A DNA stretch of 64,000 nucleotides from an uncultured Chloroflexia bacterium (GCA_963820415.1 CAWFZT010000004.1:261344-325343), one strand, 5' to 3'. Numbered from the stretch's first letter, positions 22,751 to 54,604 are shown. Notes: generated by a model from the sequence alone, not told the origin. Made by a program: numbers and translations.

Positions 22751-22845
22751 GGGCTCATTAGGATTTACCTTGGAAGGTCCCCAGATTTTGGGGTGTCATG
22801 ACACACCAAAATCTGGGAGTTCACCACAGCTATTCCCAGAGAACC
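22751..22845 (+). repeat. long-hairpin palindromic intergenic repeat, copy 1 (complete)
   Basis: The copy reads GGGCTCATTAGGATTTACCTTGGAAGGTCCCCAGATTTTGGGGTGTCATGACACACCAAAATCTGGGAGTTCACCACAGCTATTCCCAGAGAACC. Confidence 0.9.
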
Positions 22846-33264: not shown

Positions 33265-33330
33265 GGCTGGGAACCGGATAAATTATCACACCCCAAAACT
33301 GGGGACCTTCCACGGTAAATCCCGATGAGC
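33265..33330 (-). repeat. palindromic repeat, partial copy 3 (one hairpin arm missing)
   Basis: The copy reads ...CACACCCCAAAACTGGGGACCTTCCACGGTAAATCCCGATGAGC. Confidence 0.7.
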
Positions 33331-35725: not shown

Positions 35726-35779
35726 CCCTTGGGAATCCCCGTGGTGAACTCGACCTTCCACGGCAAATCCCAATGAACC
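35726..35779 (-). repeat. palindromic repeat, copy 4, lacking the central hairpin
   Basis: CCCTTGGGAATCCCCGTGGTGAACTC|GACCTTCCACGGCAAATCCCAATGAACC. The two outer arms are joined directly. Confidence 0.7.
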
Positions 35780-39280: not shown

Positions 39281-39363
39281 GGTTTGGGATTTGCCGTGGA
39301 AGGCCCCGGATTTGGGGATGTGAGTGTGCGTACGCACACTCACATCCCCAAATCCGGAAGTCC
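39281..39363 (+). repeat. palindromic intergenic repeat, copy 6 (right outer arm truncated)
   Basis: The copy reads GGTTTGGGATTTGCCGTGGAAGGCCCCGGATTTGGGGATGTGAGTGTGCGTACGCACACTCACATCCCCAAATCCGGAAGTCC. Confidence 0.85.
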
Positions 39364-39409
39364 ATCATGGCGATTCAAAATGAACCAATCTTTTCTTAAG
39401 GAGTGCAGC

Positions 39410-41732: not shown

Positions 41733-41743
41733 GCTAATTTTTT

Positions 41744-41851
41744 GGCTCATTGGGATTTACCGTGGAAGGTCCCCAGATTTTGGGGTATGAGCGTGCGTAG
41801 CACGCTCATACCCCAAAATCTGAGAGTTCACCACGGCTATTCCCAGAGAAC
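41744..41851 (+). repeat. palindromic intergenic repeat, copy 7 (complete, ~24-bp central stem)
   Basis: The copy reads GGCTCATTGGGATTTACCGTGGAAGGTCCCCAGATTTTGGGGTATGAGCGTGCGTAGCACGCTCATACCCCAAAATCTGAGAGTTCACCACGGCTATTCCCAGAGAAC. Confidence 0.9.
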
Positions 41852-43100
41852 TAACTTTTTTCGGAAAGGGCTTTTTCGTAAACTTCGATGACGCGGCTGG
41901 TGATCTTTTCCCAGGCGTAATTCTGCGCTTCGGCGCAGGCCTGCTCGCCCATCTGGCGCTGTATTTCTGGCTGGGAAATGAGGATTGAAAGGCGCTGGCT
42001 CAGGGTTTCGATATCCTCGTCCGGCACCACGTAACCGGTCACCCCGTCTTTGACAAGAAAAGGCAGCCCGCCGACCTGTGATGCAATCACCGGCGTCCCG
42101 CAGGCCATGGCTTCGAGCGCCACCATGCCGAAGGATTTGTAGTGCGATGGGATGATCAGCGCGTCGGCAGAGGAATAATAATAAGGCAGCGTGTCCTGTC
42201 CACGCTTTCCAAGGAACACCACCAGATCGTCCAGGTTCAGGGCGCGGCACAGGGCCTGCAGCCGGGCCATTTCGGCCGTCAAATTGTCGTCAGTCGCCTC
42301 AGGGTCGCCGCCAATGATCGCCAGGCAATGGGGATGCTGATCCAGGGTGCCGTTATTGCGCAGGATTGCCAGGGCGCGCAGGAGCGCATCCACCCCTTTC
42401 AGCGCTTCGATGCGGCCCACGAACAGCAGCATACGGCTTTCACAGGGAATGCCAATCACGCTCCTGGCTTCGTCGAGCGAGATTGGGTAGAAATGGTGTG
42501 TATCCACCCCGGGCGGGATGACGGTCAGTTTGGAAGAAGGGGCGTGGTAAAGGAATTCGAGCTGAGCTTGTTCGGCTTGCGTGGCGACAATCACCTGACG
42601 GGCCGCCCGCAGCACCTGCTGCTCTCCCTCGATGCGATATTCACCCTCTTTTCGGATTCGTCCCTGGCTACCCGGTTTTTCATCATTCCGAGGGTGTGGA
42701 ACATGTGCACGAAGGGAACCTTCCAGGTGCGCCCCAGTTCCATGGCGGCCATCCCGGACATCCAATAATGGCTGTGGATAATATCGTAGTGCAGACCTTT
42801 TTGGCCTGTAAATTTCAGAATGCTCTCAGAAAATTCGGGCAGGTAATCGATGAGCTGGTCTTTAGGCAGGTAAACCTCGGGGCCGGCAGGGATGTGGACG
42901 ACGCGGTTTCCATAGCCAAGCTCATGCAGCACGTGTGGAACGTGCTCATCCTGTGAGCGGGTGAATACGTCCACGTGCACGCCGGCCTGGCCCAGGTAAC
43001 GGGTCAGCTCGCGGACGTAAACATTCATCCCGCCGGTATCCTTGCCTCCCAGGATCGCCAGTGGGCAGGTGTGGTAAGACAGCATCGCCACGTTCAGCAT
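41851..43100 (-). pseudogene. GT4 glycosyltransferase (MshA-like), one frame disruption (or assembly indel)
   Basis: ORFs 42591-43148 and 41851-42765 are consecutive parts in different frames. The join lies near 42640-42700 (...HTLGMMKNRVARDES / RIRKEGEYRIEGEQQVLRAA...). The true start is the ATG at 43100 (MLNVAMLSYHTCPLAILGGKDTGGMNVYV). The ORF-track extension upstream of it overlaps the tRNA. Confidence 0.75.
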
Positions 43101-43104
43101 ACTC

Positions 43105-43134
43105 TTGTCTATTCTAACTTGCTCCTGGTATAAT
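43105..43134 (+). promoter_or_regulatory. promoter of tRNA-Thr
   Basis: TTGTCT, an 18-nt spacer, then TATAAT (43129-43134). The tRNA 5' end lies 10 nt downstream. TATAAT is retained in the second copy. Confidence 0.5.
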
Positions 43135-43143
43135 TTGCAAGCC

Positions 43144-43216
43144 GCCACCGTAGCTCAGTTGGTAGAGCAGACGATTCGTAATCGTCCGGTCAAGGGTTCG
43201 ACTCCCTTCGGTGGCT
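43144..43216 (+). tRNA. tRNA-Thr (anticodon CGU)
   Basis: 73 nt, folded by hand: acceptor GCCACCG/CGGTGGC, D arm GCTC-AGTTGGTA-GAGC, anticodon arm GACGA-TTCGTAA-TCGTC, T arm AAGGG-TTCGACT-CCCTT, discriminator T. No CCA is encoded. Confidence 0.9.
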
Positions 43217-43377
43217 TTTTTCATAATGAACTGGTGGGATTTAAACGGTAAACTCTTTAATTTAGCGAATGACTATGAAACATACCTAATTGCAGGGAGC
43301 AACAAAACCAGATGGATAAAAATCCATCTCGTTTTATGGCAGTTGGATTTTACCTAATGGGGTTGGGATTTCTTTTA

Positions 43378-45399
43378 TTAGTTCTTCAACTTATATATTT
43401 TCCAATGATCTTTACCTATTTCCCCGGCAATATCGTAATTCATACAAATGTAATTTAATACTTCAAACATGTCATCAGGTAGGGGTTTTTCTGGCATGAT
43501 GCACTGGCCGCTGTGATTAATTTCGATAAATGGCGTCGATGGTAAATAAGTATTTATTATGATTTTAGGGGGTTTAGTTTTAAGATCATTGAGCATCTCT
43601 TGAGACAGCTCTGGGCTTGCATAACCAATACGGTATAACGGCTTTTGATGCACAAATCGAGTTGGGGCATCCCGGCCTGACATAAAATTAATGACGGTTT
43701 GAGATCCCCAAAGTAAAACATAATCCCCCTGTTTAGTTGTAGATTTAATATATTGAACAACTTTGGTAACAGCTATTTCAGGGGGCTGCTGGTACTCTTT
43801 AATAAGTTGGATGATGGGTTTATACACAATCATAATCAAGGCGATCATATAAATAATAAACTTCAAAGAATGGTTTGATATGGGTTTATGAGCATATTCC
43901 CATCCATAACCAATCAAAATAGCGAAACATGGTAACAAGGTAAAAAAGTAATGATGATAGTTCTTACCAGACAGGCTGATAAGAATAATTTCAATCGGGA
44001 AATCAACCAAAGCCACAAGCAAAATCACAGGCAATTTTCTGACATAATCTATGCCCCGTCTGACAAAAGCAGCCCAAATCACCAGGCCAAAATAATAAAA
44101 CCAGGATGCTGTTAGAAACACCCGGAATATACTCCCAACTGCTTCAATTCTGTCTTGTGTTGTAATATCCGAATACAGGAAATTAAAACGATAAGCGACA
44201 TCCCAGAATTCCCAAAGTGAGTGATTGATATAGAAATAGAGGATGCAAGCACCTTGCACCAACACCAGCCCGCCCAAAAACCAGAAGAAATCGGCCAAGT
44301 GGATTGTTCTATCTTTGGTTAAGAATTTATAAGCAGAGATAATCAATAATGCGGCCCAAATCCCGATCAGGGTTTGTTTGAGCATTAAAGCCATTCCCAT
44401 CGCCCCGCCAATTAAAAACCACCTCCATGGTTTTTTCTTATCCATCACCATGAAATGACAGAATAAGAACAGGGCAATGCACTGGAATGGTATGCCAAAC
44501 TCTTCGGTGAAGTTACCACCTTCATTTGGGAAAACAATATTGGTTATTAACCCGACCAAAGCTAATAATAAAGCTGGCATGGAAACATTTTTCCGAAAAA
44601 CTCCATATAACAGTAAAACTGAGGCAAACAATGACATCACTTCTAATGCCCACACCCCCCATATTGAACGATTTGATATGAATAGCCCCAGCGCATCAAT
44701 ATAAAAAATTAACGGCGGTTTGTGATCCCAAAGATTCTTATAGGGGATATCTCCCTTAAGAATACGTGAGCCAAAATAGAGAAAAATACCCGAATCATTT
44801 TGAGGCATCTGCCCAGAAAAAACGGGGGAAATAGCCAAATAAACGCCAATAGTGAGAAAAGCTGCCAGGGGAATAAACCAAAACAAGGGATGGATTGTTT
44901 TTATGAAATTATTCACTTCTTTAAAAGCAACATCCCAGTTCTCGCTGGTAAGAATAAGATCTTTAAAATACAACCTGATTATGATTAATAATTGAAGACC
45001 TAAAATTAACAACCATGCAATAAAGAAAACCCCTCTTTGGAGGAAAAAGCCTATAGAACCTAAGAACATCATATCTGATAGGGCTGCAATAATGAGCGCA
45101 AATATGGCTAACAGAACAAAACACAGGCATAGTGTCGTTATATAGATTATCCGATGAGCCGATTGTAGGAAGCGGTAAAATTTTTCAAGCCATGCCGGTC
45201 TTGTGGCAAATACTATGAGGGCTGTTATATACACAAACACACAAAAAATAATACAAAAAAGCATTAACAATCTGGGCAGAGAAAATCCATAGATAATGGC
45301 ATTTTTCTCCATGGAAGTGGATGAAGAAATGAGATAAACAATGATTGAACTAACAATAATAAATATACTGGTCAGAATTTGAGTAAATTTATTCTTCAT
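43378..45399 (-). CDS. GT-C fold membrane glycosyltransferase (ArnT/PMT-like)
   Basis: 673 aa with more than 10 TM segments and a soluble C-terminal domain. It is AT-rich. The family call rests on architecture and general resemblance. Confidence 0.6.
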   Translation of the reverse strand: MKNKFTQILTSIFIIVSSIIVYLISSSTSMEKNAIIYGFSLPRLLMLFCIIFCVFVYITALIVFATRPAWLEKFYRFLQSAHRIIYITTLCLCFVLLAIFALIIAALSDMMFLGSIGFFLQRGVFFIAWLLILGLQLLIIIRLYFKDLILTSENWDVAFKEVNNFIKTIHPLFWFIPLAAFLTIGVYLAISPVFSGQMPQNDSGIFLYFGSRILKGDIPYKNLWDHKPPLIFYIDALGLFISNRSIWGVWALEVMSLFASVLLLYGVFRKNVSMPALLLALVGLITNIVFPNEGGNFTEEFGIPFQCIALFLFCHFMVMDKKKPWRWFLIGGAMGMALMLKQTLIGIWAALLIISAYKFLTKDRTIHLADFFWFLGGLVLVQGACILYFYINHSLWEFWDVAYRFNFLYSDITTQDRIEAVGSIFRVFLTASWFYYFGLVIWAAFVRRGIDYVRKLPVILLVALVDFPIEIILISLSGKNYHHYFFTLLPCFAILIGYGWEYAHKPISNHSLKFIIYMIALIMIVYKPIIQLIKEYQQPPEIAVTKVVQYIKSTTKQGDYVLLWGSQTVINFMSGRDAPTRFVHQKPLYRIGYASPELSQEMLNDLKTKPPKIIINTYLPSTPFIEINHSGQCIMPEKPLPDDMFEVLNYICMNYDIAGEIGKDHWKIYKLKN

Positions 45400-45404
45400 G
45401 TCTT

Positions 45405-46976
45405 TTAGTTACCGGTCATCTTATAAACCGTCAAGATATCAGCATCGCCGACCTTTATAGAATAAACAGCCTTCCCTGCAATATGTCTGTTTATAGAGTA
45501 GTAATAAGTAGTTATGGTGTAATCTGGCGGTTGGTCTTCAGAGATGATCAATCTCTGACGATCTGATAATGGCAACAGCATCTTCCCATTTGGGAAATCT
45601 AAAACTCGCACAATTATTTTTTGACCGGGGTCTGTTCTGGCGATATACTTCAAGCCATCCAAGGTCGACACTCCCCACACATCCAGGCCAAACCGCTCTT
45701 TGATGATTGACATTTTGGAACCGGCCAGAAAATTGAAGTAAGTATATTGGTAGGGATGATAGCGGATCATAAAATAGACCGGATAAGCCAGCCCAATGAT
45801 TAAAATTAAGGTTGTCCAAAGCCGCCAGGATTGGGTTTTTTGGCGCATTTTATCAGTGAGAGACTTGAAGCCATATAACGAGATCAACAACAAGGCAGGA
45901 TAGACGAAGTACATCTGGCGATTATCGGTATAGATGACCGATTTCATCACGATCACGGCGACAATGGGGAGAATGCCACAGGCTGCGACCAGGTACAGGT
46001 TGCGCATGGACAGGAAATGTTCTCTTAACCTGGACTTTAAAGTATGGACGGCGAGGGTTATGCTACCTAGAAGAAACAGCGCCAGGTAGAACACAGGCGA
46101 GCTGATCGAGAACCAGACGATAGAATAATGCCAGGGAATGTTGTTTCGGATATCATGTCCCATGTATAACTGAAAATCATTCCACGGGTACTGTTTCATA
46201 AGTTTAAAGGCCTGGACATAATTTTCAATGGTGTGCGTATACAATGTTGGGGTAAACCAATTCACCAATCCTGCAGCCACAAACAAAGACGTAAGCAAGA
46301 AGATGCCGGCTTTTAGATAACTCCTCCATTTGTCTCTAGACAAAAACAGATCGAAGAAATAGAAAAAGAGGGTAATCGGAATGATGATCAACCCTGGCGT
46401 GCGGATGCTGCATACTACCCCAATCGCAATGCCGTGCAAGATGGCTGTGAAAATATTTTTCTTTTCCAGGAGCAGCAGCAAGGTATAAATAGAAATGACA
46501 TACGCGCTCAGGAAAGGAATGTCTTTGGGATTGTAGAAGGAATGGGCGAAAATCCTGGGGCTGATAATGAGGAACAGCGAGCCTAACAAGCCGATCTTCC
46601 AATCCTTGAAGATCTTCTTCCCGATCAGGAAAAAGATAAACACGGAAAATACAAAAAAGGCAAAGGTTACTTGATGCCGTCGCCAATAGATCGCCTGTGT
46701 ATCTCCGCTCGGAGCGAACCAATATAGAACCATGCTGAAAAGTGGAGGATAATAGCAAACGTTTTCCCACCCGGTACATGCCTTCACAAACTCGCTTTGG
46801 AGGCCTCCGATAAAGCGTTCGTAATTGACCCTTCCCCTGAGAAAATCAATTTTTTCATCTACAGATATTCCGTAATCTTTATAAATTAAGAAACCTGTTA
46901 AACTGTACGTACAAAAAAAACAAAATACGAAGAGTGCCGGAAGTATTTTTCTTTGGCCAAATTTTATTCCCTTCAT
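45405..46976 (-). CDS. GT-C fold membrane glycosyltransferase (ArnT/dolichyl-phosphate-mannose mannosyltransferase-like)
   Basis: 523 aa. The N-terminal YKDYGISVDE and PPLF loop motifs resemble the GT39/GT83 first periplasmic loop. It is polytopic and AT-rich. Confidence 0.65.
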   Translation of the reverse strand: MKGIKFGQRKILPALFVFCFFCTYSLTGFLIYKDYGISVDEKIDFLRGRVNYERFIGGLQSEFVKACTGWENVCYYPPLFSMVLYWFAPSGDTQAIYWRRHQVTFAFFVFSVFIFFLIGKKIFKDWKIGLLGSLFLIISPRIFAHSFYNPKDIPFLSAYVISIYTLLLLLEKKNIFTAILHGIAIGVVCSIRTPGLIIIPITLFFYFFDLFLSRDKWRSYLKAGIFLLTSLFVAAGLVNWFTPTLYTHTIENYVQAFKLMKQYPWNDFQLYMGHDIRNNIPWHYSIVWFSISSPVFYLALFLLGSITLAVHTLKSRLREHFLSMRNLYLVAACGILPIVAVIVMKSVIYTDNRQMYFVYPALLLISLYGFKSLTDKMRQKTQSWRLWTTLILIIGLAYPVYFMIRYHPYQYTYFNFLAGSKMSIIKERFGLDVWGVSTLDGLKYIARTDPGQKIIVRVLDFPNGKMLLPLSDRQRLIISEDQPPDYTITTYYYSINRHIAGKAVYSIKVGDADILTVYKMTGN

Positions 46977-47283
46977 ATTCCATAATTTCCTTTCACTTCT
47001 GTTTCCGCTAAAAGCAGAACTCTAAACAGCCGGAAAAGAATTCCGGAGTTATCTAAACTTAACAATTGAACCTGTTATCTGTACAACGATTTCAACGGTT
47101 GCGTCAAAACGCTCCTTTTCAAATGCAATGCCAGGATTCTGTTAGGTAAATAGATGGTGACCAAAGCCTTTTTGCGTAGTTGTTCTGGTAAAGGGTAACT
47201 TTGCGGAAAGGATTTACTCGTCAAGATGTTGTGGAAGTGCCCAGGCGTACGTTTCTGGTGGCGATCCCACAAATATGTGGGTG

Positions 47284-47379
47284 CAACTCGCGCACGTAAA
47301 CGTTCATCCCGCCGGTATCCTTGCCTCCCAGGATTGCCAGCGGGCAGGTGTGGTAAGATAGCATCGCCACGTTAAGCAT
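47284..47379 (-). pseudogene. 5' fragment (32 codons) of a second GT4 (MshA-like) gene
   Basis: The encoded MLNVAMLSYHTCPLAILGGKDTGGMNVYVREL is identical to the intact gene despite 7 nucleotide differences. Homology ends at codon 33. Confidence 0.85.
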
Positions 47380-47422
47380 ACTCTTGTCTATTCTAACTTG
47401 CTCCTGGTATAATCTGCAAGCC

Positions 47423-47495
47423 GCCACCGTAGCTCAGTTGGTAGAGCAGACGATTTGTAATCGTCCGGTCAAGGGTTCGACTCCATTCGGTGGCT
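47423..47495 (+). tRNA. tRNA-Thr (anticodon UGU), with one T-stem mismatch
   Basis: It is identical to 43144-43216 except for anticodon loop TTTGTAA (C34 to T) and T-stem 3' strand CCATT, which gives a G:A mismatch. Confidence 0.8.
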
Positions 47496-47564
47496 TTTTT
47501 ATTTTAATTTCCAGTAACTGCTCAGGCACTGGGGTGGTAAACATTCTTTAGAAACGAAAAGAGG

Positions 47565-47705
47565 TCACTGTAAGGTGAACTCCTTTCTTAAGGTTGAGTA
47601 TAGCATTGCCTGATCATTCACAGTATAGACTTGAGAAGGCGTCTGGTAGTCGAGGGCCTGGTGAGGGCGCCCGAAGTTGAAGAAGTGGAAGTAGTCTTTG
47701 AAAAG
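47565..47705 (-). mobile_element. C-terminal relic of an rve (DDE integrase-core) transposase, IS3/IS481-like
   Basis: The minus-strand translation is LFKDYFHFFNFGRPHQALDYQTPSQVYTVNDQAMLYSTLRKEFTLQ*. It carries the typical Y/FN..RPHQAL.Y.TP..VY tail. No upstream part is present. Confidence 0.7.
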
Positions 47706-47714
47706 GACAATAAA

Positions 47715-47951
47715 TTATTGTTGTATTTTTATTGTCTTCCAAAGAGGATTTAGGTAATCTATGCTTTCACCGGAAAATCTAGCGTGATCTTGATGATGTA
47801 TACACTCTGGGTTATTACAAAGAAAATTGTCACACAGAATTGATGAAGGCATATCCTTTTTATATTTTAATTCCCTTAAATCCACAATTTTCATTATATT
47901 GGATGCATAGCAAAATTTAGACATAGGTGTTTCACTATAAGCCTTTGCCAT
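47715..47951 (-). CDS. small Cys/His-containing hypothetical protein in AT-rich DNA
   Basis: 78-aa ORF only. No family recognised and no clear SD. Confidence 0.3.
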   Translation of the reverse strand: MAKAYSETPMSKFCYASNIMKIVDLRELKYKKDMPSSILCDNFLCNNPECIHHQDHARFSGESIDYLNPLWKTIKIQQ

Positions 47952-48026: not shown

Positions 48027-48662
48027 CTAAATGGCATCCTCCGTCCTTTTCTTGCTGGCCAATTTCTGCGCGGGGCGGCTGAAAACCCAGGTAATTCCCA
48101 CAAAAATACCTATGGCTGCCATAGCTGCCCCGCCGGCCAGGTCCAGCACGTAATGCTGTTTGGTAAAAAGGGTTGCGCCAATCACCAGCATCACCATCCC
48201 AAGCATAGGGATAAGCAGCTTGGGTTTCCAGCGCGTTCCGAAATAAGCCACCAGCACGGCAAAATACATGTGCCCGCTGGGAAATGCGTTATTAGGCCGG
48301 TCGTTAGCGTACAAAAAACGCAGCAGGTTGGAAGCCCAATCCTGGCCGGTGATCTCTGGGCGCTGTACATAGGTCGGCCAGAAGATGAAAATCAACATAC
48401 TGGGTAAGATAGTGACCAGCGAGGCCAGGATGTACGCCTTGAACAGGCGCTCCTCCATCTTGAAAACTGCCCACAGGTCGAACAGCACCCATACCCCTAG
48501 CATCAAGAAGTATGGGACAGTCCAAATGGGCCAGAGCGGGATGAGGCGATCCAGGGGAGTGTCCAGGAGCACTCCCCCATGCATGACCCGGTTGGTCAGA
48601 GTGTAGACGCATTGGGCCAAAACGACGATCACTGCCAGGGCGAGGCGTTTGGTAAGGCGCAT
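48027..48662 (-). CDS. PAP2-superfamily membrane phosphatase/phosphotransferase
   Basis: 211 aa and polytopic, with FPSGHM and TKQHYVLD motifs. Confidence 0.7.
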   Translation of the reverse strand: MRLTKRLALAVIVVLAQCVYTLTNRVMHGGVLLDTPLDRLIPLWPIWTVPYFLMLGVWVLFDLWAVFKMEERLFKAYILASLVTILPSMLIFIFWPTYVQRPEITGQDWASNLLRFLYANDRPNNAFPSGHMYFAVLVAYFGTRWKPKLLIPMLGMVMLVIGATLFTKQHYVLDLAGGAAMAAIGIFVGITWVFSRPAQKLASKKRTEDAI

Positions 48663-49834: not shown

Positions 49835-49927
49835 GTTCTCTGGGAATAGCCGTGGTGAACTCCCAGATTTTAGCTTGTCATGACATCCCAAAATCTGGGG
49901 ACTTTCTATGGTAAATTCCAATGAGCC
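49835..49927 (-). repeat. palindromic intergenic repeat, copy 8 (complete, inverted orientation)
   Basis: The copy reads GTTCTCTGGGAATAGCCGTGGTGAACTCCCAGATTTTAGCTTGTCATGACATCCCAAAATCTGGGGACTTTCTATGGTAAATTCCAATGAGCC. Confidence 0.9.
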
Positions 49928-50023
49928 AAGTTAATTGTGAAGCGCCGATAGTTTTTGTTGAATAGGGGTCAGGTGGATTTTTTTTGCTTCTACCCGCCAT
50001 ACTAATATCCGGCTTTGGTGATC

Positions 50024-50759: not shown

Positions 50760-51935
50760 ATGCGGATTTTGATCACAGGTTCAACCTATGCCCCTGCCTT
50801 CAACGGGCAGTCTATGTTTACAACCAATCTCGCTGAAGGGTTGGCGCGGCGCGGGCATGAGGTGTGGGTCTTGCTCCCCTCAGATAAGGGTAAGCCATAC
50901 AGCCTGGAGCGCAATGGAGTCCACATCCGTACGGTAAGCGCAACAGAAATAACCTTTCTTCACTCCGAAGCGTACGCCTCTGCATTTCCCGGGTCTGAAG
51001 TAAACCGTTTTCTAAAGGATTTTAAAGCGGACGTTATCCACCTGCAAGACCATTATCCGATCAGTGTAAGTGTATTGTTCCAGTCCAGGCGCTCAAAAAT
51101 AAAGGTGGTTGGCACGAACCATTTTATGCCTGAAAATTTGCTGCCATATATCCCTCTGTCGCCGGTTTTGAAACCGGTCTTGAACCGCATCATGTGGGAA
51201 TGGATGAAGTTTACCTATAATCGGCTGGATATGGTGGTTGCCCCTTCCAGGACGGCAGCCGAAATTATCCGCAAACAGAAGCTGCGCGTGCCTGTACAGG
51301 CCATTTCTTGCGGAGTAAGCCTGCAGCGTTTCCATCCAGATGAGACGGTTGACCGGAGGGCTCTCAGGTTGCGCTATGGCCTTGACCCGCAACGAACTAC
51401 TTTTTTGTTCGTTGGCAGGGTGGATGGTGAAAAGCGGGTAGACGTCTTGATCCGAGCCATCAAATCCTTGGGACGGCATGATATCCAATTGGCGGTTACC
51501 GGGAAAGGGGCTGCCTTACCTGGCCTGAAGGGCCTGGCGCGGGATTTAAAAGTAGATGATTTGGTGCGCTTTACAGGTTTTGTGCCGGATACAGACCTGC
51601 CAGCCCTGCTCAACAGCATCGATGTCTTTGCCATGCCCAGCGAAGCAGAACTGCTCAGTATCGCCAGCCTGGAAGCTATGGCGACCGCCCGGCCTGTCCT
51701 GGCGGCAAATTCTCAAGCTCTGCCAGAACTGGTCGCCAATGATGTGAATGGATACCTGTTCAAGCCCGGCAGCGTTTCCGATATCACGCGCTGTATGGCG
51801 TTGCTGGTGGACCATCCAGAGCGCTGGTCAGCCATGGGCGCAGCCAGCCTGGAAAAAGTGCAGGTGCACAGCCTGGAGAATATGTTGACAAGCTATGAAC
51901 GGCTTTACCTGCAGCTCCTTGAAAAAGCGGATTAA
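50760..51935 (+). CDS. GT4 family glycosyltransferase
   Basis: The ATG at 50760 gives MRILITGSTYAP. It has the E-x7-E region SEAELLSIASLEAMA. Confidence 0.8.
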   Translation: MRILITGSTYAPAFNGQSMFTTNLAEGLARRGHEVWVLLPSDKGKPYSLERNGVHIRTVSATEITFLHSEAYASAFPGSEVNRFLKDFKADVIHLQDHYPISVSVLFQSRRSKIKVVGTNHFMPENLLPYIPLSPVLKPVLNRIMWEWMKFTYNRLDMVVAPSRTAAEIIRKQKLRVPVQAISCGVSLQRFHPDETVDRRALRLRYGLDPQRTTFLFVGRVDGEKRVDVLIRAIKSLGRHDIQLAVTGKGAALPGLKGLARDLKVDDLVRFTGFVPDTDLPALLNSIDVFAMPSEAELLSIASLEAMATARPVLAANSQALPELVANDVNGYLFKPGSVSDITRCMALLVDHPERWSAMGAASLEKVQVHSLENMLTSYERLYLQLLEKAD

Positions 51936-52756
51936 AATTGCCGTTTCAGGCTACGGGATTGGATATCCGCTGAAGCCAGGTGAACTGCATCTACAGGCGG
52001 TAATACCGGGACAGTGATCTGGCCTTCTTCCGGGTCCCCTAAACGGGTGATGTTTTGCGGTTGGTTAATGGATAGCCAACTCACGTAAGCCATTGCCAGG
52101 GCGTTCAGCTCTGGAGGCGAGAAGATTTTTTCCGTCGGGATAATGCTATGTAAAAGACGGAACCGGGTGACCTCTTCAAAGAAGGTCATTGGATCAGATA
52201 CAGGAAGCTCGCGATCGTACAGGACAAGCTGGCGTTGAATTCTTCCTTCGAGTGAGTTGGCCTCAAAGGGGATGGCGCCCAACAGCGCATAAAAAAAGGT
52301 CTCAGATTGGCTTTCCTCCCATTGGCGGGTTGAGTTATCCGAAGGGAAGCAGTTGTAATCAAGGTTGCTGAGGCTTCCGTATAGGTTAAAGCCAGACCGT
52401 ATCCAGCCGGGACTGTCTTCAACGGAAGCCGGGGTGCGAGGGACGCTCACCCCGCGCAGGCGCGCTTCGTACTCCGCCACGCGCATATTGATGCGTCGCC
52501 CGGTATGAGGAGGCGTGTTCATTTTTTGACGGAATTCGGGATCGTTCATCAAGCCGGTATTAGGGCGCTGTGGGGCGTTGATTGTGACCAGCACGCTGCT
52601 CAAGCCGGCGCAGAATCCCAGCACTTCCAGTTCCTCGCCCCGGCTTAGCGCCAGCAGGTGAAAGTCCGCATCCATCGCTGCCAGGGTGTATGGCCTGCGA
52701 CCACCAGAAATATTAATCCCCATATAGGCTAAAGGTTTGAAAACCATGCTAAGCAC
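51932..52756 (-). CDS. hypothetical protein (weak DUF429/RNase H-fold-like resemblance)
   Basis: 274-aa ORF. The N-terminal GINISGG...VLVTINAPQ pattern is the only support for the family. The start could be the ATG at 52723. Confidence 0.45.
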   Translation of the reverse strand: MLSMVFKPLAYMGINISGGRRPYTLAAMDADFHLLALSRGEELEVLGFCAGLSSVLVTINAPQRPNTGLMNDPEFRQKMNTPPHTGRRINMRVAEYEARLRGVSVPRTPASVEDSPGWIRSGFNLYGSLSNLDYNCFPSDNSTRQWEESQSETFFYALLGAIPFEANSLEGRIQRQLVLYDRELPVSDPMTFFEEVTRFRLLHSIIPTEKIFSPPELNALAMAYVSWLSINQPQNITRLGDPEEGQITVPVLPPVDAVHLASADIQSRSLKRQF

Positions 52757-52874
52757 CAGTTTAGCGTAAAATCAGACAGCCCGCAACTGAAATAGAGCCC
52801 CATTTTTTACCGGGCTTCGGCGTGAATGATTTGACACTTCCGTTTGAAAAATTTCTGGACTATACTTATTATTG

Positions 52875-52978
52875 TCCATTGGGATTTTCTGTGAAAGGTC
52901 CCCAGATTTTGGGGGGTGAGCGTGCGTAGCACGTTCACCCCCCAAAATCTGGGAGTTCACCACGGTTATTCCCAGAGG
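52875..52978 (+). repeat. palindromic intergenic repeat, copy 9 (complete)
   Basis: The copy reads TCCATTGGGATTTTCTGTGAAAGGTCCCCAGATTTTGGGGGGTGAGCGTGCGTAGCACGTTCACCCCCCAAAATCTGGGAGTTCACCACGGTTATTCCCAGAGG. Confidence 0.9.
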
Positions 52979-53017
52979 CCCCTTATTCTACCTGATCGGA
53001 AAAGGAGTTACCTGCTT

Positions 53018-54604
53018 ATGACAGCCGAAATGCCCTTTAAACTTACTTATGCGACCATGTTTAACCCACCTGAAGAGCTGCATACCCGGTTTGAAGAAGC
53101 GTTGGTAAAAATCAAACCTGGTTTGGGAAAAGAAAATGCCATGTTGATCGACGGCAAAGAACACTTTACTGCCGAAAAATTCGAAGACCGCTGCCCTGCC
53201 AATACCGATTTGCTCCTGGGTGTTTTCCAAAAAGGGGATGCACAGGATGCCCAGGCAGCCATCGCTGCCGCTAAAAAAGCTTTCCCGTTGTGGAGTCATA
53301 TGAAATGGCAGGAACGGGCAGCTTTAATTTGTAAAGCCGCTGACCTGATGGAAGCACGCATTTTTGAAATGGGTGTCATTGTAGCCATGGAGGTTGGTAA
53401 AAACCGTATGGAAGCCCTGGGGGATGTGGCCGAGACGGTCGAATTATTCCGCTACGCCTGTGAAAGGATGGAAGCCAGCCACGGATTTGAAGTCCAGATG
53501 GGGCGTGATCCCTTGGTAGGGTTTGAATCGACCAATCTTTCGGTTTTACGACCCTATGGCGTCTGGGTGGTGATCAGTCCCTTCAACTTTCCTGCCGCCT
53601 TGACCGGGGGGCCGACAGCCGCAGCCCTTGTCACCGGCAACACGGTTGTGATCAAGCCAGCGACTGACACACCCTGGACATCGCGCCTGATGGCTGAGTG
53701 CCTGCGTGACGCCGGTATTCCGGACGGGGTGTTTAATTTCGTAACCGGCCCTGGCAGCACGCTTGGGCAGGCTTTGATCGAGGCGCCGGAAGTGGCTGGG
53801 ATCACTTTTACCGGTTCCTATGACGTGGGCATGCGCATTTTCCGCGATTATGGCCGAGGACGTTGGATTCGCCCGACCATTCTTGAGTTAGGCGGAAAAA
53901 ATCCTGCTGTGGTGACCAGGCACGCCGACCTCGAAGCTGCCGCGGTTGGCATTATACGCTCTGCTTTTGGCCTCCAGGGACAAAAATGTTCGGCTTGTTC
54001 GCGGGTTTTCATCGAAGAACCGGTTTATGAAAAACTGGTATCCAGGTTGGTCGAATTGACCAACCAACTGGTGATCGGCGATCCCATCGAAAGGTCTACG
54101 AATCTGGGCCCGGTAATCAACCGCGGCTCTTATCGTGATTACCAGGAGTTCAGTGAAGAGCTTGGCCAGTCTGGCGAGATCCTGACCGGTGGGAAGATCC
54201 TGACCGGAAAGAATTATGCCAGGGGATATTTCTGTTTACCTACTCTGGTGGCTGACCTGCCTGAAGATCACCATTTGTGGCAGGACGAAATGTTCGTCCC
54301 TATTACAACCATCGCCCGCGTCAAGAATTTTGACGAGGCCATGCAGCGCGCCAACAACGTACAATATGGCCTGACGGCGGGGTTCTATGGATCTCAGGAT
54401 GAAGCGCAGGCTTTCTACGACCAGGTCCAGGCCGGGGTGACCTACGCCAACCGCTCCCAGGGAGCGACCACCGGCGCCTGGCCCGGTTTCCAACCTTTTG
54501 GCGGATGGAAAGGCTCCGGTTCTACCGGGAAAAATGCTGGAGGTTTGTATTATTTGCCGCTTTACATGCACGAACAAATCCGCAACCTGGTGCGAAAAAC
54601 CTAG
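53018..54604 (+). CDS. aldehyde dehydrogenase family, L-glutamate gamma-semialdehyde (P5C) dehydrogenase-like
   Basis: ORF 52916-54604. The ATG at 53018 follows AAAGGAG, and the upstream part is repeat DNA. It has ELGGKNP and FGLQGQKCSACSR motifs. Confidence 0.75.
   Translation: MTAEMPFKLTYATMFNPPEELHTRFEEALVKIKPGLGKENAMLIDGKEHFTAEKFEDRCPANTDLLLGVFQKGDAQDAQAAIAAAKKAFPLWSHMKWQERAALICKAADLMEARIFEMGVIVAMEVGKNRMEALGDVAETVELFRYACERMEASHGFEVQMGRDPLVGFESTNLSVLRPYGVWVVISPFNFPAALTGGPTAAALVTGNTVVIKPATDTPWTSRLMAECLRDAGIPDGVFNFVTGPGSTLGQALIEAPEVAGITFTGSYDVGMRIFRDYGRGRWIRPTILELGGKNPAVVTRHADLEAAAVGIIRSAFGLQGQKCSACSRVFIEEPVYEKLVSRLVELTNQLVIGDPIERSTNLGPVINRGSYRDYQEFSEELGQSGEILTGGKILTGKNYARGYFCLPTLVADLPEDHHLWQDEMFVPITTIARVKNFDEAMQRANNVQYGLTAGFYGSQDEAQAFYDQVQAGVTYANRSQGATTGAWPGFQPFGGWKGSGSTGKNAGGLYYLPLYMHEQIRNLVRKT

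Follow-up and report, generated by a model that had tools for sequence, protein, structure and literature searches.

Long copies of the ends of host genes are carried by some phage elements, such as e14 and phage 21 at icd, and HP1. DDE transposases, for their part, make target duplications of a few bp to about 15 bp. At T6SS and Rhs loci, homology-facilitated illegitimate recombination is the proposed means by which resident gene ends are displaced (PMC5361080; Kirchberger et al., 2017). The T6SS model takes as its anchor a conserved stretch that lies upstream of the effector-immunity module; in Rhs loci it is the constant 5' part, and the 3' ends are displaced as orphans. For tRNA genes, anticodon switching is described in yeast experimental evolution (PMC3868979), and the birth of bacterial tRNA genes by duplication is described as well (PMC7661048).

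The locus described here is an ordinary small genomic islet of an Anaerolineaceae bacterium, bracketed by long direct repeats. Coordinates refer to the window, the whole stretch of 64,000 nt that was analysed, and the features are as follows.

41851-43100, minus strand: GT4 glycosyltransferase gene, MshA-like (Pfam Glyco_transf_4 and Glycos_transf_1)
43005-43221: left repeat copy, with GT4 codons 1-32, the divergent promoter region, tRNA-Thr(CGU) and a 5-nt T-run
43105-43134, plus strand: promoter-like site for the tRNA (TTGTCT, 18-nt spacer, TATAAT, upstream TG), a consensus match only
43144-43216, plus strand: left tRNA-Thr, anticodon CGT (ARAGORN; Rfam, 69.9 bits)
43222-47283: inserted low-GC islet, 4062 nt (about 4.1 kb)
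43310-43329: terminator-like hairpin, bidirectional, between the tRNA and the end of the 673-aa gene
43378-45399, minus strand: 673-aa multi-pass membrane glycosyltransferase with a PMT_2 (GT39/GT83-like, GT-C) domain (Pfam PF13231, 37.4 bits, cut-off 26.1)
45405-46976, minus strand: 523-aa membrane glycosyltransferase with a PMT_2 domain (Pfam PF13231, 28.5 bits, cut-off 26.1)
47268-47283: 6-bp hairpin CCCACA-AATA-TGTGGG, exactly on the junction of islet and right repeat (z = -2.8, modest)
47284-47500: right repeat copy, 217 nt
47284-47379, minus strand: orphan GT4 5' fragment, codons 1-32, its frame continuing into islet DNA to a stop at 47221
47423-47495, plus strand: right tRNA-Thr, anticodon TGT (ARAGORN; Rfam, 63.7 bits, cut-off 29)
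47568-47702, minus strand: C-terminal remnant of an rve-type DDE transposase (FNFGRPHQALDYQTPSQVY), outside the islet (translation; Pfam rve_3, E = 0.0017, below the cut-off)
47715-47951, minus strand: AT-rich 78-aa ORF with no assigned function
48027-48662, minus strand: PAP2 phosphatase gene (Pfam), which natively adjoins the tRNA on the right in a ~92% identical relative

A repeat search of the window found one direct pair, 43005-43221 and 47284-47500, with a spacing of 4279 nt and 95% identity. On alignment, 207 of the 217 positions are identical, and the copies differ by 10 mismatches with no gap inside the repeat. Each copy takes in the first 32 codons of GT4, the divergent promoter region and one tRNA-Thr gene, spanning from 139 nt 5' of the tRNA through 5 nt beyond its 3' end. 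The coding parts (43005-43100 and 47284-47379, minus strand) give the identical translation MLNVAMLSYHTCPLAILGGKDTGGMNVYVREL, and all seven codon differences between them (left/right: CTG/CTT, CTG/CTA, CCA/CCG, GCG/GCA, AAT/AAC, GTC/GTG and CTG/TTG) are synonymous. Of the remaining three mismatches, one is intergenic (43135), one falls on anticodon position 34 (43177) and one is in the T-stem (43206). Repeat search, alignment and codon comparison thus confirm what the initial annotation had read here, namely 217-nt repeats with 10 mismatches, seven of them coding and all of these synonymous. Chance is ruled out as the source of a repeat of 217 nt; the matches expected in shuffles for a piece of even 22 nt numbered 0.00. 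A GGGT is also shared by 43001-43004, just outside the repeat, and 47279-47282, beside a 1-nt offset, but at 4 nt it is compatible with chance.

The GT4 gene has MshA as its best NCBIfam match, at 361 bits and under the cut-off of 462. In the window, a 1-nt deletion within an A-run near 42650-42653, seen as a single gap against L081, splits it into two ORFs, while it is unbroken in all related assemblies (416 aa in L083, L093 and L094; 422 aa as annotated in L091); the deletion is probably a homopolymer error of the window assembly. GT4 and tRNA-Thr(CGT) are neighbours in 57 of 60 Anaerolineaceae species, and the left tRNA-Thr(CGT), whose orthologous position is occupied in these 57 of 60 relatives, is the ancestral GT4-adjacent tRNA. 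The right copy keeps the same promoter-like site (47384-47413; again a consensus match only). Its tRNA scores about 6 bits below the left one and has a non-canonical G51-A63 pair in the T-stem in all strains with a right copy. The TGT anticodon is confined to the window, CGT being present in L082 and L083; this switch, seen in one assembly, may reflect drift as the copy decays, or even an erroneous base call. An independent C34-to-T shift occurs at the orthologous single-copy tRNA locus of another species, L025. The initial annotation named both genes tRNA-Thr without remarking on their anticodons. L037 and L041 have additional tRNA-Thr(TGT) genes, which were considered as similar duplications and rejected: their similarity to the CGT gene is of tRNA length only and their anticodon stem is different. 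They are ordinary UGU isoacceptors.

The islet has a GC content of 0.35-0.46 against 0.55-0.61 in the flanks, and two GT-C genes occupy 3.6 of its 4.06 kb. The best non-self homologue of the 673-aa protein is 54-57% identical, and the named homologues are Anaerolineae GT39 proteins. Homologues of the 523-aa protein (GTC523) are 77-81% identical, carry GT39 annotations and occur as several paralogues per contig; the protein is a member of a large Anaerolineaceae paralogue family. Both genes are under purifying selection, with pN/pS of 0.30-0.55 against other strains for the former and 0.15 for the latter. Neither glycosyltransferase has a sequence match among PDB chains. The duplicated GT4 promoter may drive both genes.

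Since the islet starts 5 nt past the tRNA 3' end, where one repeat boundary also lies, it could be seen as a degenerate tyrosine-integrase element at the 3' end of tRNA-Thr, with a long attP that included the tRNA and the start of GT4 and an integrase that was later lost. The sequence downstream of the tRNA is variable among relatives, in keeping with such an element, and phage elements carrying long host gene ends are known. However, the ORF list and Pfam revealed neither an integrase nor a remnant of one in the islet, whose small ORFs have no family match. No shorter att-like or extra tRNA 3' fragment was found anywhere in the window, and the islet had no match in phage or viral collections; a plasmid search gave a single weak match (29%). 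The 139 nt upstream of the tRNA, which reach into a protein gene, are moreover not needed for integration at a tRNA 3' end. An integrase origin is thus improbable, and the earlier observation that this repeat is unlike a classical att duplication holds, as it includes the whole tRNA and 139 nt upstream and is accompanied by no integrase.

Transposition is a second candidate, in which the 217 bp would be an oversized target-site duplication or the product of an IS-driven rearrangement. The rve-type transposase remnant sits about 70 nt past the right repeat, and an IS1182-like element is present at a neighbouring site in a ~96% identical lineage, where the contigs end within the element. Yet the remnant is outside the islet, and the islet itself contains no transposase and has no inverted repeats at its ends. 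A second IS copy for a composite element is lacking: neither another copy of the rve-type remnant nor a full-length rve element was found within the window. A duplication of 217 bp is also far from the size of DDE target duplications. Taken together, transposition is very improbable as the source of the repeats. In the right-hand flank, the remnant and the 78-aa ORF stand in place of the 100-bp tRNA-PAP2 spacer of L091; both L091 and L084 have the tRNA, 100 bp and then PAP2. Positions 47501-47520 weakly resemble the sequence downstream of the tRNA in L092, a resemblance too weak to mark the junction of right repeat and flank as native.

Comparison with relatives established both the insertion and its inheritance. 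The site is empty in the ~92% relative L091 (GT4, tRNA-Thr(CGT), 100 bp, PAP2) and in L092 (GT4, tRNA, AKR). Foreign-composition DNA at the GT4-tRNA locus, the widespread synteny and these two empty sites bear out the insertion proposed in the initial annotation. Both junctions and both repeat copies are also present in two other ~98% identical assemblies (L081 plus L082, and L083), so that three ~98% strains, counting that of the window, have the complete arrangement. The left junction was found in L093, L094 and L095 too, and the islet in L081/L082, L083, L093 and L094. In the ~96% lineage the left repeat and island are present, and the contigs break before the right repeat; the dating of the duplication before the 96/98 split is accordingly taken from the left junction and island only. 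Divergence of the island between lineages is similar to that of the flanks. A break between L084 and L090 at the repeat was considered as a sign of the duplication in the ~92% MAG, a reading rejected with L091, which has an identical GT4 protein and is contiguous across the empty site. Among 80 species loci, none had GT-C homologues within 10 kb of GT4/tRNA, and no donor molecule, or genome with contiguous tRNA and islet, was found outside the clade.

These assemblies also bear on an assembly artefact or two-strain chimera as the origin of the right copy. The window assembly does contain at least one probable homopolymer error, and related short-read assemblies frequently break near the locus. 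The novel junctions, both copies and the same eight fixed left/right differences nevertheless recur in two assemblies made from different samples, in one case within a single contig, and an artefact is effectively refuted. Of the two outcomes that the initial annotation had named as fatal to its reading, mis-assembly of the right copy did not materialize, as both junctions recur elsewhere; an inherited arrangement in relatives was largely found, as three ~98% strains have both copies.

To polarize the 10 differences, the empty-site relative was used alongside five further left copies and two further right copies, an approximate procedure since the strains recombine and descent is not strictly treelike. 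At five of the seven synonymous sites (43007, 43014, 43023, 43056 and 43062) the right-copy state also occurs in functional left copies elsewhere (L093 and/or L094/L095), and four of the five sites show it in L091 as well. These five differences thus trace to the functional left copy, as changes or polymorphisms. Coding changes private to the right copy are limited to 43080 (T) and 43095 (A), both synonymous, an outcome with a probability of about 0.07-0.10 in the absence of selection; the C corresponding to 43135 is likewise a private right-copy state. Left and right copies are 9-10 differences apart in 217 nt, the same as the 9-10 that separate the left copies of the ~98% and ~96% island-bearing lineages; thus, no additional divergence before insertion is required. 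The right copy shows signs of relaxed constraint, namely the T-stem mismatch in all strains and the anticodon change in this strain only. Further, GT4 is visibly mosaic among strains, which indicates that homologous recombination is active at this locus. With L084 as sole outgroup, three left-derived sites were followed by three or four right-derived sites, suggesting a Campbell crossover between 43062 and 43080. This was dropped because L093 and L094/L095 show that the 'left-derived' states are a recent allele of some strains.

The initial annotation had drawn a different conclusion from the all-synonymous pattern: that one repeat copy arrived together with the islet from another lineage that had diverged beforehand, most differences having accumulated before insertion in a working GT4. 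All seven coding differences, including both changes private to the right copy, are indeed synonymous, the required synteny is widespread, and exchange of GT4 alleles between lineages is demonstrable. Against this, five of the seven are left-copy polymorphisms with the right-copy state in other strains, and the left-right distance is not above that between orthologous left copies. The change that breaks the T-stem would be unexpected in a donor's sole tRNA-Thr(CGU). GT4 also contains no anomalous tract relative to the empty-site relative, being 92.7% identical where its neighbours are 91-92%. Divergence inside the functional gene of another lineage is thus unlikely, although a donor differing by one to three substitutions in the repeat is possible given the small numbers (10 differences, two private coding changes). 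The accompanying judgement that divergence in situ fits less well is not borne out, in view of the equal left-right and left-left distances and the signs of relaxed constraint in the right copy. More generally, when a gene and its truncated duplicate differ only at synonymous positions, this does not in itself show that the duplicate diverged in another lineage, since the functional copy may carry most of the changes.

The locus probably originated in a single recombinational insertion that duplicated a 217-bp anchor, the copies then diverging in place. A low-GC cargo of about 4.1 kb would have been placed directly 3' of the GT4-adjacent tRNA-Thr(CGU) in one event, in the common ancestor of the recombining ~96-98% Anaerolineaceae strains and after the split from the ~92% relative. 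The process was presumably recombinational, without an integrase or a transposase. The 217 bp, made up of the first 32 GT4 codons, the promoter region and the tRNA, would have served as the homologous anchor and been duplicated for that reason. We infer two possible routes: Campbell-type single-crossover integration of a circle bearing anchor and cargo, or homologous recombination on one side coupled to an illegitimate join at GT4 codon 32, known as homology-facilitated illegitimate recombination or 'displacement'. A donor would need the same GT4/tRNA synteny, whereas marked divergence is not required of it; as the GT4/tRNA-Thr(CGT) synteny occurs in 57 of 60 species, any conspecific donor would have the anchor. 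Following insertion, the left copy would have remained the working GT4 start and tRNA, its synonymous alleles still exchanged with other strains. The right copy, a redundant orphan, would have gained two silent and two intergenic changes and the T-stem mismatch and, in this strain only, the C34-to-T change that makes it a tRNA-Thr(UGU).

The locus has little reach beyond its organism. It documents, by an empty site and several independent strains, the entry of a cargo-only envelope-glycosyltransferase islet into an uncultured Anaerolineaceae lineage without a dedicated recombinase. The CGU-to-UGU switch in one strain is a minor natural case of anticodon switching after duplication, and the switch at the orthologous locus of L025 is a second, independent case. 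It is conceivable, though improbable, that the GT4/tRNA-Thr pair is a recurrent anchor for swapping Anaerolineaceae envelope-glycosylation cassettes, each event displacing an orphan anchor copy. If so, the orphan copy would provide a spare promoter for incoming genes and a tRNA free to change its anticodon, a natural path to a new isoacceptor gene (here CGU to UGU).

The islet resembles tyrosine-integrase tRNA islands in its location on the 3' side of a tRNA, its deviant GC content, its tRNA-containing direct repeats and its presence/absence polymorphism. It differs from them in that it is 4 kb long and consists of cargo only, without an integrase, and in that its repeat comprises a complete tRNA, a promoter and 96 nt of a protein gene, whereas theirs hold the 3' part of the tRNA. 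As in Campbell integration of suicide plasmids or of products of aberrant, specialized-transducing-phage-like excision, the order is anchor, insert, anchor, with the whole homologous segment directly duplicated, and the inserted unit of 217 + 4062 = 4279 nt acts like a circularly permuted molecule. Unlike those systems, the islet shows no circular form and no replication or mobilization gene, and the origin of a circle is conjectural. The right tRNA-Thr parallels anticodon switching after duplication, as a redundant copy changes position 34 and becomes an isoacceptor (CGU to UGU); it differs in that no sign of selection for the switch was found here, and the switched copy, seen in one assembly, has a T-stem mismatch. 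Compared with T6SS effector-immunity arrays and Rhs orphan ends, the anchor is a gene 5' end plus a complete tRNA gene. In contrast to T6SS arrays, there is a single displaced unit. The microhomology at the presumed illegitimate joint is only 4 nt, and the route is read from sequence. The islet nevertheless shares with the displacement proposed for T6SS and Rhs loci the presumed joint arrival of a conserved anchor and new cargo, a fragment of a conserved gene left as an orphan direct repeat beside that cargo, the lack of an encoded dedicated recombinase, and a cargo that diversifies a cell-surface or competition trait.

In this Anaerolineaceae (Chloroflexota) genome, repeat search and alignment identified one pair of direct repeats, the sole long one in the GT4/tRNA region of the window. 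The copies are 217 nt in length, spaced at 4279 nt and identical, free of gaps, at 207 of 217 positions. On the plus strand, from left to right, each carries GT4 codons 32 to 1 (as reverse complement), a divergent intergenic region of 43 nt, a tRNA-Thr gene of 73 nt and five T's. On one side the repeat stops at the 3' end of the tRNA, and on the other at an arbitrary position within GT4 codon 32 that adjoins 4 nt of microhomology (GGGT) as well as a small hairpin. The islet between the copies (4062 nt) has a GC content of 0.35-0.46, against 0.55-0.61 in the flanks, and is almost wholly occupied by two minus-strand genes whose products are multi-pass membrane proteins (673 and 523 aa), both assigned a PMT_2 domain (GT39/GT83-like, GT-C) by Pfam.

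Features of the islet and its borders
43005-43221, left repeat copy
43310-43329, bidirectional terminator-like hairpin close to the left edge of the islet, lying between the tRNA and the 673-aa stop codon
43378-45399, minus strand, 673-aa PMT_2 protein (GTC673)
45405-46976, minus strand, 523-aa PMT_2 protein (GTC523)
47284-47500, right repeat copy
47568-47702, minus strand, C-terminal remnant (~45 codons) of an rve-type transposase, just past the right repeat
Just past the right repeat, with the rve remnant, AT-rich 78-aa ORF
Beyond this ORF, PAP2, aldo-keto reductase, DedA/VTT protein and a second GT4 (Pfam)

The GT4 adjoining the left repeat is MshA-like, with a score under the equivalog cut-off, and the region around the islet is an envelope-glycoconjugate neighbourhood.

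The initial annotation had proposed comparing related genomes for the islet and for the tRNA beside GT4. Close relatives were obtained through a metagenome pattern scan and from protein-cluster members. Both repeats, the islet and both novel junctions are present in the ~98% strains L081 plus L082 (JGI Ga0187886) and L083 (ENA ERZ27250059), the last being one 12.6-kb contig that spans both repeats and the islet. An assembly artefact in the right copy, which had been named as a possible refutation, is thus disfavoured. Another ~98% strain, L093, shows the left part only (islet and left junction), while contigs of a ~96% lineage (L094, L095) hold part of GTC523, GTC673, the left repeat and GT4, with an islet divergence resembling that of the flanks. 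The site is empty in the ~92% relative L091, where GT4, promoter, tRNA-Thr(CGT), 100 bp and PAP2 follow one another with a single 217-nt copy, and in L092 (~80-83%), where GT4 and the tRNA are followed by AKR. Because other assemblies carry the structure and these two sites are empty, it is real and an insertion. The insertion post-dates the divergence from the ~92% lineage. Its inheritance covers at least the whole ~98% clade and very probably goes back to the 96/98 ancestor. Among species-level relatives, tRNA-Thr(CGT) divergently adjoins GT4 in 57 of 60, PGI-DinB-GT4 is often kept on the far side of GT4, and conservation does not extend downstream of the tRNA.

In a more distant relative (L033:7137-9958), tRNA-Thr lies directly beside homologues of a 274-aa ORF and an aldehyde dehydrogenase that the window has at 51932-54604, at a distance of 8.7 kb from its left tRNA. 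Across the family, variability therefore extends over the entire 43.2-51.9 kb. In another (L010:3097-5882), ~2.7 kb separate tRNA-Thr(CGT) from the GT4 start, which may represent an insertion on the tRNA's other side. The tRNA-PAP2 gap is a graveyard of mobile DNA whose content differs between lineages: the rve-type remnant and AT-rich 78-aa ORF in the ~98% strains, an IS1182-like (DDE_Tnp_1_6) transposase at the equivalent of window 47991 in the ~96% lineage (L086:10697-11173; L087:8589-9194) and merely a 100-bp spacer in the ~92% relative.

The seven coding differences between the copies are all synonymous, and codon comparison matched exactly those listed in the initial annotation. The remaining three are intergenic (43135), at anticodon position 34 (43177/47456) and in the T-stem (43206/47485). 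It had been concluded that the right copy diverged inside a functional GT4, most simply in another lineage, from which the islet and one flank would then have been transferred. In an alignment of six left copies, three right copies and the L091 empty site, the right-copy state at 43007, 43014, 43023, 43056 and 43062 also occurs in functional left copies of other strains, namely at four of the five sites in L093 and at all five in L094/L095; L091 has it at 4/5. These five differences are polymorphisms of a working GT4, in which synonymous change is expected. The naive probability for seven of seven synonymous (about 1e-4) is inapplicable. Only 43080 and 43095 are coding changes private to the right copy, and both being synonymous has P = 0.07-0.10 without selection. 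Also private are the T-stem mismatch at 43206, in all strains, and the anticodon change, in this window only, while the right-copy state at 43135 recurs in the L093 left copy. Over 217 columns, the left and right copies of the window differ at 10 positions, as do the left copies of the window and L094; the L094 left copy differs from right copies at 9-10, and any copy from L091 at 12-13. The left-right difference is therefore no greater than that between orthologous left copies of two island-bearing lineages. Repeat divergence is that expected if the duplication was made at insertion and changes then accumulated in place, and nothing calls for a diverged donor. The repeats described in the initial annotation are thus confirmed, and their interpretation finds partial support: the insertion itself stands, but its origin in a diverged lineage is neither shown nor needed.

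Alignment of close relatives revealed that GT4 is a recombination mosaic among strains. Over 42717-42876 the window agrees with the ~96% lineage against L081, L083 and L093, and L093 has its own divergent tract over 42903-43135, reaching into the left repeat. Such recombination accounts for the clustered 43023-43062 allele in the window, L081 and L083. In the window only, an A-run 1 nt shorter near 42650-42653 (minus strand) splits GT4 into two ORFs. As GT4 is intact (416 aa) in all related assemblies, the split is probably a homopolymer sequencing error, or possibly a very recent pseudogenization. A palindromic MITE-like intergenic repeat of ~100 nt occurs in at least five copies in the 64-kb window (41742-41854, 52877-52977, 22752-22844, 49835-49929 and 39284-39376; partial at 33286-33330 and 35752-35779). 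The copy between DinB and GT4 (41743-41851) is missing from L083, L093, L094 and L095, which makes it a polymorphic insertion in this group of strains.

Together, the 217 + 4062 nt that were inserted form a circularly permuted anchor-plus-cargo unit. A search of islet ORFs, Pfam domains and repeats returned no integrase, transposase or terminal inverted repeats, and no additional tRNA fragment was found anywhere in the window. The missing integrase and tRNA fragment speak against an integrase island whose att was very long, and the lack of transposase and inverted repeats against an IS-mediated event. A recombinational route is most economical, given that the islet encodes no recombinase and that homologous recombination can be shown to operate at this locus. 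It could have been single-crossover integration of a circle bearing anchor and cargo. Alternatively, a linear fragment from a conspecific donor could have entered by homology-facilitated illegitimate recombination, the mechanism put forward for orphan arrays at T6SS and Rhs loci (PMC5361080), pushing the resident start of GT4 downstream together with its promoter and the tRNA. A search for a donor arrangement found none, with GT-C homologues near GT4/tRNA in 0 of 80 species loci.

The cargo genes have pN/pS of 0.15-0.55 and are under purifying selection. A consensus match points to a putative promoter (TTGTCT-18-TATAAT, with TG before it) in the 43-nt intergenic region of each copy; the putative GT4-promoter -35 hexamer has one match fewer in the right copy. 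Since a consensus scan of the stretch from the right repeat to where the 523-aa gene starts found no sigma-70-like site, the cargo may be read from the duplicated GT4 promoter. GTC523 (45405-46976) shares 100% identity with P0226, an allele from another sample, across the final ~83 residues but only ~85% upstream, a shift that indicates recombination within the islet gene. In Anaerolineaceae, single genomes encode many paralogues of the family to which the 523-aa protein belongs.

The initial annotation did not mention that the anticodons differ, the left tRNA-Thr having CGT and the right TGT. A further feature of the right tRNA is the mismatched pair G51-A63, and its score is 63.7 bits, against 69.9 for the left; it is redundant and shows relaxed constraint. 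TGT (47456) occurs in this window only, L082 and L083 having CGT there, and the switched tRNA retains the anticodon-stem sequence of a CGU-type tRNA. An independent C34-to-T shift, again with a CGT-type anticodon stem, is found in another species (L025, 9818-9890) at the orthologous single-copy tRNA adjacent to GT4, while true UGU isoacceptors (L037, L041) have a different anticodon stem. Position 34 is not known to be an identity element for ThrRS, and charging with threonine is therefore predicted to persist in the switched tRNA. The right tRNA offers a small, naturally occurring example of an anticodon switch that followed duplication, though drift while the copy decays, or a miscalled base, could also account for the change.

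Overall, the locus is a small islet that carries cargo only and adjoins a tRNA gene, probably made by recombination that duplicated its anchor, and is of a kind already known. Its CGU-to-UGU change, seen in one assembly only, is comparable to anticodon switching after duplication as treated in PMC3868979 and PMC7661048.
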